Shown here: piece by piece, positions 17,125 to 17,474 of the stretch
How positions within the stretch are numbered: position 1 is the stretch's first letter
Layout of the letters: every line of letters begins with the position of its first letter
From: a virus
Lineage: Duplodnaviria > Heunggongvirae > Uroviricota > Caudoviricetes
Virus record (IMG/VR): IMGVR_UViG_2609459819_000002
Coordinates: 1-20,937 of that record
DNA: 20,937 nucleotides
Reading direction: 5' to 3' (one strand)
Made by a program: the position numbers and the translations under genes
Notes under the pieces: model-generated
The model's input: only the letters and a program-made list of their open reading frames with translations
The model's database searches: none
What the model was told of the DNA's origin: nothing

Positions 17125-17178
17125 TCGTGGAGAGTTGATGGCGTTCGGCTCAAGGATTCTTGCCCGTCGGGAGGCTGC

Positions 17179-17262
17179 ATGACAACCACGGAATGCATTT
17201 TTCTGGCAGCGGGCTTCATATTCTGTGTGCTTATGCTTGCCGACATGGGACTTGTTCAATGA
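17179..17262 (+). CDS. Small hydrophobic peptide (27 aa, MTTTECIFLAAGFIFCVLMLADMGLVQ)
   Basis: GGGAGG RBS 4 nt upstream; single predicted TM helix; its stop overlaps the ATG of the next ORF (ATGA). Not in the ORF track. Confidence 0.25.
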   Translation: MTTTECIFLAAGFIFCVLMLADMGLVQ

Positions 17263-17474
17263 CACCTCAGCACGAAAACGCCCTTCGCAGCATTGCCCGT
17301 CAGGCTAATTCTGAAATCAAAAAAGCCAGACAGCAGTTTCCGGATAAAAACGTCGATGACATTTGCCGTAGCGTACTAAAGAAGCACCGCGAAACGGTAA
17401 CGCTGATGGGATTCACACCGACTCATTTAAGCCTGGCGATCGGCATGTTAAACGGCGTCTTTAAGGAACGGTGA
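17259..17474 (+). CDS. Hypothetical protein (71 aa, MTPQHENALRSIARQANSEIKKARQQFPDKNVDD...)
   Basis: ATG at 17259 is coupled to the upstream small ORF. The track's longer ORF (from 17160) starts at a non-ATG codon; an early-left accessory gene by position. Confidence 0.45.
   Translation: MTPQHENALRSIARQANSEIKKARQQFPDKNVDDICRSVLKKHRETVTLMGFTPTHLSLAIGMLNGVFKER

Follow-up and report, generated by a model that had tools for sequence, protein, structure and literature searches.

A conserved 27-codon reading frame between orf63 or dam and orf61 in the lambda exo-xis block is probably a small-protein gene

The question raised by this locus is whether a 27-codon ORF that lies directly before a 71-aa gene is itself a gene, and what the 71-aa gene encodes. 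The window (the whole stretch of phage DNA that was analysed, 20,937 nucleotides) contains at this place the exo-xis (early-left) block of phage lambda. The earlier note missed this identity; its placement of the two small genes near int and xis in the early-left region agrees with the gene order, in which orf73, DUF4222, xis and int follow downstream as in exo-xis and a truncated Dam gene replaces orf63 upstream. In most phages the upstream gene is orf63, and Dam is the alternative context in ~31 loci. The Dam remnant is truncated at 17090/17091: homology to intact prophages starts at 17090, and on the left the match to ren and outer-membrane-protein DNA runs up to 17091. The intact Dam gene (WP_000129285; Pfam Dam, E 2e-56) ends at the equivalent position in locus L001. 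In the window the block survives as a remnant within a degraded prophage that has lost pL, and its expression here is therefore uncertain. The coordinates of the features are given in Table 1.

Table 1. Features of the exo-xis remnant in the window.
Feature	Coordinates	Strand	Basis
3' remnant of phage Dam N6-adenine methyltransferase gene (last ~30 codons and TGA)	17090..17182	+	Homology
GGGAGG Shine-Dalgarno-like site	17169-17174	+	Sequence; 4 nt upstream of the small-ORF ATG
27-codon ORF, hydrophobic acidic peptide MTTTECIFLAAGFIFCVLMLADMGLVQ	ATG 17179 to TGA 17260-17262	+	ORF
So-called Orf61 N-terminal extension (933W L0070 / Phi24B vb_24B_7c, 93-aa model)	17193..17258	+	Judged non-coding in that frame
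Orf61 proper, 71-aa basic protein, predicted all-helical	17259..17474	+	PHROG 303, SNPs, AF2
Next small ORF: 31 aa if started at GTG 17471, which overlaps the Orf61 stop in GTGA; 29 aa if started at ATG 17477	17471..17566	+	ORF list
Intrinsic terminator, t2 of the exo-xis literature	17495..17523	+	8-bp stem followed by T-run
Orf73, TraR/DksA-type zinc-finger protein	17573..17791	+	Pfam zf-dskA_traR, E 2.8e-9; RefSeq annotation

The 27-codon ORF, described earlier as unlisted, preceded by a GGGAGG ribosome-binding site and overlapping with its stop the ATG of the 71-aa gene, is indeed intact in the window, with the site 4 nt before its ATG and an ATGA overlap at 17259. There is also a second overlap, absent from the earlier note: the stop of Dam overlaps the ATG of the small ORF. 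This ATGA is kept in all nine upstream contexts, with two unrelated upstream genes, as is the one at the Orf61 start, and mosaic breakpoints fall at 17177/17179. The ribosome-binding sites are more variable. GGGAGG is found only in the Dam context among the nine, which is the only one with a strong Shine-Dalgarno sequence for the small ORF; the orf63 contexts have gagagagaccaggt. The Shine-Dalgarno sequence before Orf61 is weak. Coupling through AUGA/UGAUG overlaps is known for trpB-trpA and for exo-orf60a in lambda; the small ORF shares with these genes the 4-nt stop/start overlap, at both of its ends, whereas its coupling is read from this geometry only. Ribosomes ending at the UGA of the upstream gene (mostly orf63, Dam here) would reinitiate at the AUG one base upstream, and those ending the peptide would do likewise at the Orf61 AUG, so that the small ORF would be one step in a series of overlapping small genes translated in succession. 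Concerning the downstream side, the next small ORF spans the terminator t2 and is annotated as a 29-aa CDS in 434 and SfI; it is probably the 31-aa 'orf2313' of PMC8614690. A terminator has been predicted between orf61 and orf73 (PMC4195576), and the function of lambda Orf73 has been described (PMC9239242).

We sampled loci by anchoring on the 71-aa gene, which gave 202 non-redundant homologous loci. The small ORF is intact (ATG, 27 codons and TGA) in 200 of them, the two exceptions being one premature stop at codon 27 and one locus with gaps, and the identical peptide is found in 185. The lambda equivalent is complement(30925..31008), and lambda, 434 and 933W encode the very same peptide (100% identity). 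Identity among the loci is 95-100%; there are ~24 substitution events in all and the test rests on the ~13-15 recurrent ones, because divergence is low. The recurrent SNPs in the peptide frame are 11 synonymous (S) to 2 non-synonymous (N), with 28% synonymous expected (binomial p=3e-5; 202 loci). Counting as recurrent the A21S and D22G pair, which belongs to one phage lineage, lowers this to 11:4 (p=3.5e-4). The singleton SNPs of the same frame are 1 S to 10 N, and the contrast with the recurrent ones gives Fisher 6e-4. The two other sense frames over the small ORF score 0 S : 13 N and 2 S : 11 N for recurrent SNPs. The 71-aa frame, as positive control, shows 14 S : 5 N (p=8e-5), and the next small ORF (29-aa form), as negative control, shows no coding signature, with 4 S : 7 N. 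Also, the third-position periodicity passes from one frame to the other where the two genes overlap in ATGA. Most recurrent replacements in the peptide (F8L, T3A, A10V, A21S) are conservative with respect to a hydrophobic helix; one lineage loses a charge through D22G. Elsewhere, the coding strand carries similar small hydrophobic ORFs at only 0.1-0.3 per kb. Based on its integrity across loci, the codon-position-specific substitutions and this background rate, the comparison indicates that the small ORF is more than a chance reading frame. Conservation of the coding frame in homologous prophages had been named in the earlier note as the point on which its proposal would fall, and the large excess of synonymous over non-synonymous changes speaks for a coding frame.

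The product of the small ORF, of 2.9 kDa, is acidic and strongly hydrophobic (GRAVY 1.62). It contains no Lys or Arg; the only charged residues are E5 and D22, and the net charge is -2.5. Based on Kyte-Doolittle hydropathy, with a membrane threshold of 1.6 over a stretch of ~19-21 residues, the best 19-residue mean is 2.33 (residues 7-25) and the best 21-residue mean 2.42 (residues 6-26), both well above the threshold. The peptide is thus predicted to form one membrane-embedded helix. The hydropathy agrees with the earlier description of a single-TM-like peptide. There is no flanking Lys/Arg to set topology, and this lack of flanking positive charges is unusual among small membrane proteins. 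A tblastn search with the peptide against 50,697 phage records returned only near-identical Escherichia copies and no distant homologues, and nothing significant was found for it in Pfam, NCBIfam, PHROG and PADLOC. The peptide is not among the entries of the Sakai RIBOseq small-ORF supplements. With no K/R it yields no tryptic peptides, so that it would be missed by standard proteomics, and its ORF of 84 nt is shorter than the minimum gene length of Prodigal, 90 nt.

The 71-aa protein, for which the earlier note could name no family, is Orf61 of lambda and the Stx phages, a protein with published genetics (PMC6213356, PMC8614690). It matches PHROG 303 with E 1e-35 over profile positions 23-93 and is 97-100% identical to residues 23-93 of 933W and 434 Orf61; like Orf61, it is encoded upstream of orf73 (a TraR homologue), xis and int. 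It was described earlier as basic and helical, which its calculated charge and predicted structure bear out: the pI is 10.0, the net charge about +5, and the AF2 model of the 71-aa form alone has four helices with a mean pLDDT of 85.4. On this evidence, the 71-aa ORF is the folded core of Orf61. Many copies carry the name ZapA in NCBI, which we reject: the Pfam PF05164 score is 14.1 bits against a gathering threshold of 23.8, the weak alignment covers residues 4-35 and is found in just 3 of 24 Orf61 family members, and no ZapA match was found in NCBIfam or in fold searches. Both proteins are short and helical, but the name is unsupported for the 71-aa protein. An ankyrin-like motif vanishes with the family profile and was rejected; neither sequence nor fold searches gave a significant match to an ankyrin-repeat-like or homeodomain-like fold. 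The 'divergent' matches to the 71-aa protein, of 49-70% identity, stem from frameshifted or partial assemblies and do not reflect true divergence. The Orf61 subfamilies P0121, P0125 and P0116 were not found in IMG/VR.

There is a difference between this protein and the published gene models, which give Orf61 61 aa in lambda and 93 aa in 933W and Phi24B. Both models read the small-ORF DNA in another frame, the lambda one starting further upstream in the same frame as the 93-aa extension. The true start would instead be the internal Met, and the first 22 annotated residues would be the peptide gene read out of frame. The ~20 distant relatives of Orf61 (32-48% identity) have 68-89 aa, nearly all of them 68-78, and align from the 71-aa ATG. 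Orf61 also starts at this ATG in the P0008, SfI and Klebsiella contexts; in the Klebsiella phages the start of the Orf61-like gene overlaps the methylase stop directly. We judge the 61-aa and 93-aa models to be mis-annotations and the true Orf61 to have 71 aa, a judgement based on sequence comparison and structure modelling.

If the published model were right, the extension would code for the Orf61 N-terminus and the 27-codon ORF would be meaningless. From ATG 17193 on, the frame of the extension is free of stops in all haplotypes, the 93-aa model is the one in PHROG 303 and many records, and a review cites ribosome profiling as confirmation of 'orf61' expression. The same review lists as extra ORFs in the exo-xis block a 7-aa and a 31-aa one only, which speaks against the peptide gene. 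Ribosome density over 'orf61', however, is accounted for equally well by the peptide gene. Over small-ORF codons 2-27 it is the frame of the extension that shows the 0 S : 13 N, including the radical changes H>Y and G>R, and within 17193-17258 the count is 0 S : 7 N. Against the 93-aa model stand also the starts of the distant relatives and of the P0008, SfI and Klebsiella genes, and the folding of the 71-aa form alone, as against residues 1-23, which model inconsistently according to the Donaldson review. We consider this model highly improbable. Dual coding, with the peptide and a longer 93-aa isoform made from overlapping frames, is decidedly unlikely: both frames are open throughout and 17193 offers an in-frame ATG, but the extension frame is unconstrained, the Shine-Dalgarno-like site before 17193 is poor and the extension is missing from all distant relatives. 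Least probable of the explanations considered is that the synonymous bias reflects a sampling accident or the presence of an antisense gene (ORF 17112-17246). The number of substitution events is small, and the antisense frame, with its third positions in common with the peptide frame, scores 7 S : 5 N; lambda keeps it open too. The binomial probabilities under both counts and the independent site-frequency contrast argue against an accident. An antisense gene was rejected: its signal is weaker, a recurrent SNP changes its start codon (M>I) and two other Met codons are hit likewise, its C-terminal half varies with the mosaic upstream gene, and the Orf61 control shows the same mirror effect.

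A different possibility is that the small ORF is a pure translational relay which hands ribosomes from orf63 or Dam to Orf61, its peptide being functionless. The overlaps kept at both ends in all contexts would fit such a relay, as would the weak Shine-Dalgarno sequence before Orf61 and the Klebsiella phages, which couple the Orf61-like gene directly to the gene upstream. We regard it as unlikely. It would leave the amino acids unconstrained, yet the substitutions are overwhelmingly synonymous, and independent peptide families in the same slot, described below, are all hydrophobic and under purifying selection. RNA folding around the small ORF is also not unusual (z-scores 0.08 and 1.6), which leaves a relay no structure to unwind; with an Rfam search that returned tRNA only and no RNA element at the small ORF, an explanation by an RNA element was rejected. 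The likeness to a toxin-antitoxin pair suggested earlier, with the 71-aa protein neutralising a membrane-toxic peptide or with the roles exchanged, is not borne out and is in our view very unlikely. Two small genes are tightly coupled, the hydrophobic one has the size and hydrophobicity of a type I toxin, the other is small and basic, and the pairing is recurrent. Each partner, however, occurs naturally without the other: lambda keeps an intact peptide with a frameshifted Orf61, and the SfI/P0008-type phages (including locus L086) and Klebsiella phages carry Orf61 alone. The two genes thus lack the obligate co-occurrence of type II systems, and neither product matches a toxin-antitoxin or defence family in Pfam, NCBIfam and PADLOC. 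Neither an antisense RNA nor a conserved promoter of their own was found: the Rfam search gave no family for a cognate antisense sRNA, and the one promoter-like site on the minus strand (17185-17156) scores no better than shuffled sequence and falls within the Dam tail, which is specific to that context. The genes are located within a lytic early operon and not in a stand-alone addiction locus.

Known small membrane peptides offer a comparison at the level of general properties. DinQ (27 aa), TisB (29 aa), ShoB (26 aa) and IbsC (19 aa), and the regulators MgtR, MgtS, AcrZ and MgrB, resemble the phage peptide in size, in a single hydrophobic helix (predicted here), in being missed by gene finders and in yielding no tryptic peptides. 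There is no sequence similarity to them; the phage peptide differs in its negative net charge without flanking positive charge, and, unlike the genes of type I toxins, its gene is embedded in a phage operon and not in a stand-alone locus with an antisense RNA. Lambda Kil is a soluble 47-aa FtsZ inhibitor. Like Kil and the other pL host-inhibition genes, the small ORF is a short, non-essential, accessory part of the early-left region of lambdoid phages, whereas its peptide is hydrophobic and unrelated to Kil in sequence. The peptide may or may not have the Kil-like host-inhibition role suggested in the earlier note. Pfam Lambda_Kil is present in L086.

The pairing of a small membrane-type peptide with a small partner, pointed out in the earlier note, is a recurrent arrangement. 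In a Yersinia-type lineage, 23 of 36 loci have hydrophobic ORFs of 29-36 aa before Orf61-like genes, belonging to three unrelated families; these ORFs end 3 nt before the Orf61-like start or overlap it. The chance expectation of such an ORF is 0.002-0.006 per slot, and pN/pS is 0.35-0.38 for the two families with enough variants. In other phages, this slot before Orf61-like genes thus appears to have been filled repeatedly by unrelated genes for mini-TM peptides. Any joint function of peptide and Orf61 would be dispensable, because many Orf61 loci lack the peptide gene.

Taken together, we consider it probable that 17179-17262 is a real coding gene of the exo-xis block, a member of a coupled chain which precedes a true Orf61 of 71 aa, and that it is not part of an obligate toxin-antitoxin pair. 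The peptide may act at the inner membrane and assist the non-essential exo-xis module, which biases the choice between lysis and lysogeny, probably together with or alongside Orf61; both the membrane role and the functional link to Orf61 are inferred. A more speculative extension, which we find possible but doubtful, is a hitherto unrecognised two-gene module of temperate enterobacterial phages. In it a mini-TM peptide of 27-36 aa, drawn interchangeably from at least four unrelated families, would be translationally coupled to a conserved, helical Orf61-like protein of ~71 aa and would tether or gate this soluble partner at the inner membrane, biasing lysis/lysogeny. The lambda peptide would then be the sole intact product of the 'orf61' locus and would explain the delta-orf61 phenotype of lambda.

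Phages with delta-orf61 give more lysogens and survivors (PMC6213356). Mapping of the published primers places the lambda deletion over peptide codons 13-27 and the Phi24B deletion over peptide codons 25-27. If the 27-aa gene is real, the delta-orf61 alleles are therefore double lesions and their phenotypes need to be re-assigned; the Orf61 model behind the genetic, structure-modelling and yeast two-hybrid studies would also be wrong at its N-terminus. A conserved and essentially unstudied small-protein gene would then be present in the best-studied phage, lambda, an example of how short ORFs evade annotation. The recurrence of unrelated mini-TM genes before Orf61-like genes provides a testable hypothesis for a protein family without a function. 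The exo-xis block of lambda and the Shiga-toxin phages, whose products are poorly defined, affects prophage induction and, therefore, toxin release.

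The window comes from the E. coli chromosome, beside proA and tRNA-Thr(CGT), and carries the heavily degraded remains of a lambdoid prophage. Rightwards of 17090 its sequence shares 98–100% identity with intact prophages at their early-left end, where the gene order is gam, bet, exo, DUF1317 (orf60a), Dam methylase, an unannotated gap, a 71-aa ‘hypothetical protein’, TraR/DksA, DUF4222, HTH excisionase, integrase and tRNA-Thr. The same stretch matches phage lambda 30606–31008 (97.8% identity), 434, 933W, Phi24B and ~180 other phage records; it is the ‘exo-xis region’, an identity that the earlier note missed. 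The Dam gene of the window is reduced to its last ~30 codons and abuts a ren/outer-membrane-protein fragment and emrE, a junction not found in any of the 5,426 complete E. coli genomes searched. Further left of that fragment lie emrE and a BD-FAE esterase, and BL21-type strains have a similar ren/Dam-remnant/peptide/Orf61 remnant. Since pL, N and the recombination genes are missing, the native promoter is absent in the window; the gene pair is flanked by a sigma-70-like site and the terminator t2. Elsewhere the prophage is a patchwork, without immunity or replication region.

Coordinates of the features in the window (lambda positions where stated)
Feature	Position	Strand	Details
Remaining prophage	1–16600		Pin-like invertase; tail and baseplate genes; HNH endonuclease; bor; Rz/R/S lysis genes; Q; rusA; ybcO- and ninB-like genes; esterase; emrE
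Truncated large terminase	7615–8241		
DUF3800 gene	11522–12325		
Sigma-70-like site	16834–16862		
Dam remnant junction	17090/17091		
GGGAGG	17169–17174	+	5' of the peptide ORF
Mosaic breakpoints	17177/17179		
Peptide ORF	17179–17262	+	27 codons, encodes MTTTECIFLAAGFIFCVLMLADMGLVQ
Stop (TGA) of upstream reading frame	17180–17182	+	overlapped by ATG of the peptide ORF
Equivalent of 933W L0070 start ATG	17193		93 aa annotated
71-codon ORF (Orf61)	17259–17474	+	ATG at 17259, overlapped by TGA of the peptide ORF
A-run	17318–17323		lambda ~30865
Next small ORF	17471–17566		29/31 aa; GTGA overlap with the Orf61 stop (ATGA in lambda); terminator t2 inside
29-aa ORF (negative control)	17477–17566		
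Terminator t2	17495–17513		
lambda ‘orf61’	lambda 30839–31024		61 aa annotated

The earlier note described a peptide ORF behind GGGAGG whose stop overlaps the ATG of a basic, helical 71-aa partner, and by sequence and prediction this description is correct; the overlap of the peptide ATG with the upstream TGA was absent from it. The peptide is very hydrophobic (GRAVY 1.62; Kyte–Doolittle mean 2.33–2.42 over 19–21 residues) and acidic, lacks Lys and Arg, and is likely located in the membrane. The 71-aa product has a pI of 10.0 and is predicted to be all-helical, with four helices (mean pLDDT 85.4).

For the substitution analysis, the 71-aa protein served as the anchor for gathering loci from IMG/VR, metagenomes, one-genome-per-species contigs and phage records, so that sampling of the upstream ORF was unbiased; after duplicate removal, 202 loci cover 17179–17474. 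In the 27-aa frame the recurrent SNPs are 11 synonymous to 2 nonsynonymous (28% synonymous expected, p=3e-5) and the singletons 1:10, and this contrast (Fisher p 6e-4) is the frequency-spectrum signature of purifying selection. Synonymous and nonsynonymous change are thus unequal in the very comparison by which the earlier note proposed to judge the ORF. All high-frequency variants fall on third positions of the 27-aa frame (nt 9, 12, 18, 30, 33, 39, 66, 72 and 81), and the periodicity changes frame at the ATGA junction; the recurrent A>G at nt 81 is silent in the peptide and turns the Orf61 ATG into GTG, also a start codon. The peptide is identical in 185 of the 202 loci, and its recurrent replacements (F8L, T3A, A10V) are mostly conservative for a hydrophobic helix; if A21S+D22G, found in one lineage of lambda-like phages, is counted as recurrent, the ratio becomes 11:4 (p=3.5e-4). 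The 71-aa ORF, as positive control, gives 14:5 in its own frame (p=8e-5; singletons 6:6) and the 29-aa negative control 4:7 (p=0.39; singletons 1:4).

Other readings of the same DNA were weighed. The frame of the annotated N-terminal extension of Orf61 gives 0:13 recurrent SNPs (p=1) and the third sense frame 2:11 (p=0.91), with singletons of 4:7 in both. An antisense gene would share third positions with the peptide frame, yet its signal is weaker (7:5), a recurrent SNP lies in its start codon, its C-terminal half varies with the mosaic upstream gene, and the Orf61 control shows the same kind of mirror signal; we reject this reading. As for an RNA element, the only Rfam matches are to tRNA and no unusual RNA structure is found (z 0.08 and 1.6). 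We consider it quite probable that the peptide ORF is genuinely coding and that 17259 is the start of Orf61.

The 71-aa start is independently supported, at the sequence level, by distant relatives and by upstream junctions. An exhaustive HMMER search yields about 20 truly distant relatives (32–48% identity; 68–89 aa, nearly all 68–78), whose alignments all begin at the Met of the 71-aa form and which share the pattern M-T-x-E-x-x-N-A-L-R...L-G-F...H-L...I-G-x-L-N-G-x-F-x-E-R. In four Klebsiella phages (GZ7, ST13-OXA48phi12.5, 2 LV-2017 and Mulock) the Orf61-like start overlaps the upstream stop by ATGA, so there is no space for an N-terminal extension; upstream lies a DNA methyltransferase gene in three of the phages and, in GZ7, a gene for an unnamed protein. 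In the SfI-type E. coli mosaic (P0008) the 71-aa gene starts 8 nt past a different, 250-aa gene. This gene (L086 2241–2993; SfI gp34, L196 123–875) takes the place of orf63 and the peptide gene in some phages of E. coli and Shigella; neither Pfam nor PADLOC gives a match, and SfI gp34 is annotated as ‘queuine tRNA-ribosyltransferase’.

The earlier note could name a family for neither product, but the 71-aa ORF is Orf61 (PHROG 303, E 1e-35, profile positions 23–93). The lambda, 933W and 434/RefSeq models (the last being the 71-aa form) align in one common reading frame, and the DNA of the peptide ORF forms the N-terminal extension of the 61- and 93-aa models, read in another frame. One extra A in the A-run (A7 in reference lambda and its laboratory derivatives, A6 in all other lambdoid phages) shifts the frame of lambda Orf61 after codon 22 and truncates the protein, so that ‘orf61’ of lambda amounts to a pseudogene joined to the peptide gene read out of frame. 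A review notes that lambda Orf61 ‘appears to be truncated’, obtains a consistent model for Phi24B Orf61 from residues 24–93 only, and lists 7-aa and 31-aa ORFs added to the block by ribosome profiling (PMC8614690). ZapA, the NCBI name on many 71-aa copies, is not supported, being sub-threshold in Pfam (14.1 vs 23.8 bits; weak match in 3 of 24 relatives only), and an ankyrin-like motif seen with the single sequence is lost with the family profile.

The ATGA between upstream stop and peptide start is kept in all nine distinct upstream contexts, which involve two unrelated genes, orf63 (~154 loci) and Dam (~31 loci). The strong SD is supplied by the Dam context only; before the Orf61 ATG there is a weak site (GGGA, 8 nt upstream). 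As stop and start overlaps are chained, the block is a train of overlapping small genes, and termination–reinitiation coupling along it would, from this geometry, be the most economical explanation. The next small ORF, which 434 and SfI annotate, probably corresponds to the 31-aa ‘orf2313’ of lambda ribosome profiling; its substitutions (4:7) show no coding-type pattern. Orf61-like genes very often lie directly 3' of an adenine- or cytosine-type DNA methyltransferase in Klebsiella and Yersinia phages (L277, L279–L282, IMG/VR) and in the Dam context of the window, usually with an ATGA overlap and GGAGG just 5'; a functional connection with methylation could be the reason, or simply a conserved operon position. 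The peptide ORF (17179–17193) and Orf61 (17259–17276) both start ATGACA...GAA (MTTTE vs MTPQ/E-E), and in Klebsiella relatives the Dam-GGAGG-ATGAC junction runs directly into Orf61; an insertion or duplication of ~80 nt at this junction may be the origin of the E. coli peptide gene.

The peptide is called sporadically and has never been named or studied, the primary lambda ribosome-profiling paper lying outside this check. It was not found in the literature searched, among the Sakai RIBOseq small-ORF supplements, or as an annotation in the lambda RefSeq, 434, 933W, P27, SfI and RefSeq E. coli records examined; a few GenBank genomes and one UniRef entry (A0A0A2SGE8_ECOLX) list it as a ‘hypothetical protein’ without a name, and it is recorded on 981 contigs. 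Two 428-aa proteins in its 90% cluster (P0081, P0082) may be gene calls that read through or fuse members of the TGA-overlapping chain. The lambda allele in assemblies labelled Shewanella, Bradyrhizobium, Pseudomonas, Kitasatospora, Paenibacillus and others (L097–L110), several on low-coverage contigs up to ~48 kb, looks like lambda control-DNA contamination. ‘Campylobacter phage CJLB-4’ (MW057783), close to lambda in length, gives exactly the same match as lambda here (97.8% to the window, with lambda's 403-nt allele).

We mapped the published recombineering primers (PMC4699033) onto lambda and Phi24B. The lambda delta-orf61 allele deletes lambda 30889–30971, that is, peptide codons 13–27 and the first 13 codons of an Orf61 frame that was already frameshifted; in Phi24B, peptide codons 1–24 are kept, and codons 25–27, the stop and Orf61 codons 1–55 are removed. 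The phenotypes reported (more lysogens, more surviving cells) are strong for Phi24B but mild for lambda (PMC6213356). Because both alleles damage both genes, these phenotypes cannot be assigned to one product; we infer as plausible that most of the effect comes from Orf61 and that the mild phenotype of lambda is due to the lost peptide.

The pairing itself is repeated with peptides of unrelated sequence. A 95-nt ‘gap’ separates the methyltransferase gene from the Orf61-like gene in Yersinia phage vB_YenM_29.18 and contains an unannotated 31-codon ORF (MKRKISDGAWFWIYLIGYTVAATLYIVSNAG), whose ATG overlaps the methyltransferase stop (ATGA) and which ends 3 nt before the Orf61-like start. A hydrophobic ORF of 29–36 aa occupies this slot in 23 of 36 related IMG/VR loci; comparable ORFs elsewhere on the coding strand occur at 0.09–0.31 per kb, or 0.002–0.006 expected per slot. 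These ORFs form three mutually unrelated families: Y1 (11 loci, 7 distinct variants; pN/pS 0.38 at pS 0.29, partner Orf61-like 0.24), Y2 (11 loci, 10 variants; 0.35 at pS 0.52, partner 0.21) and Y3 (2 loci, one variant, no pN/pS). The earlier note's interpretation is partly right: its peptide gene and the pairing are real, but its toxin–antitoxin idea fails: lambda has an intact peptide with a frameshifted Orf61, several lineages have Orf61 alone, and neither product matches TA or defence models. Counting the E. coli peptide, four or more unrelated mini-TM genes lie directly 5' of Orf61-like genes. This speaks for a functional link or, failing that, for strong selection for mini-TM genes in that position; the link is dispensable, since many Orf61 genes have no peptide. 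As a tentative and rather doubtful hypothesis, the peptide and Orf61 may share a membrane-associated function in the tuning of lysis and lysogeny.
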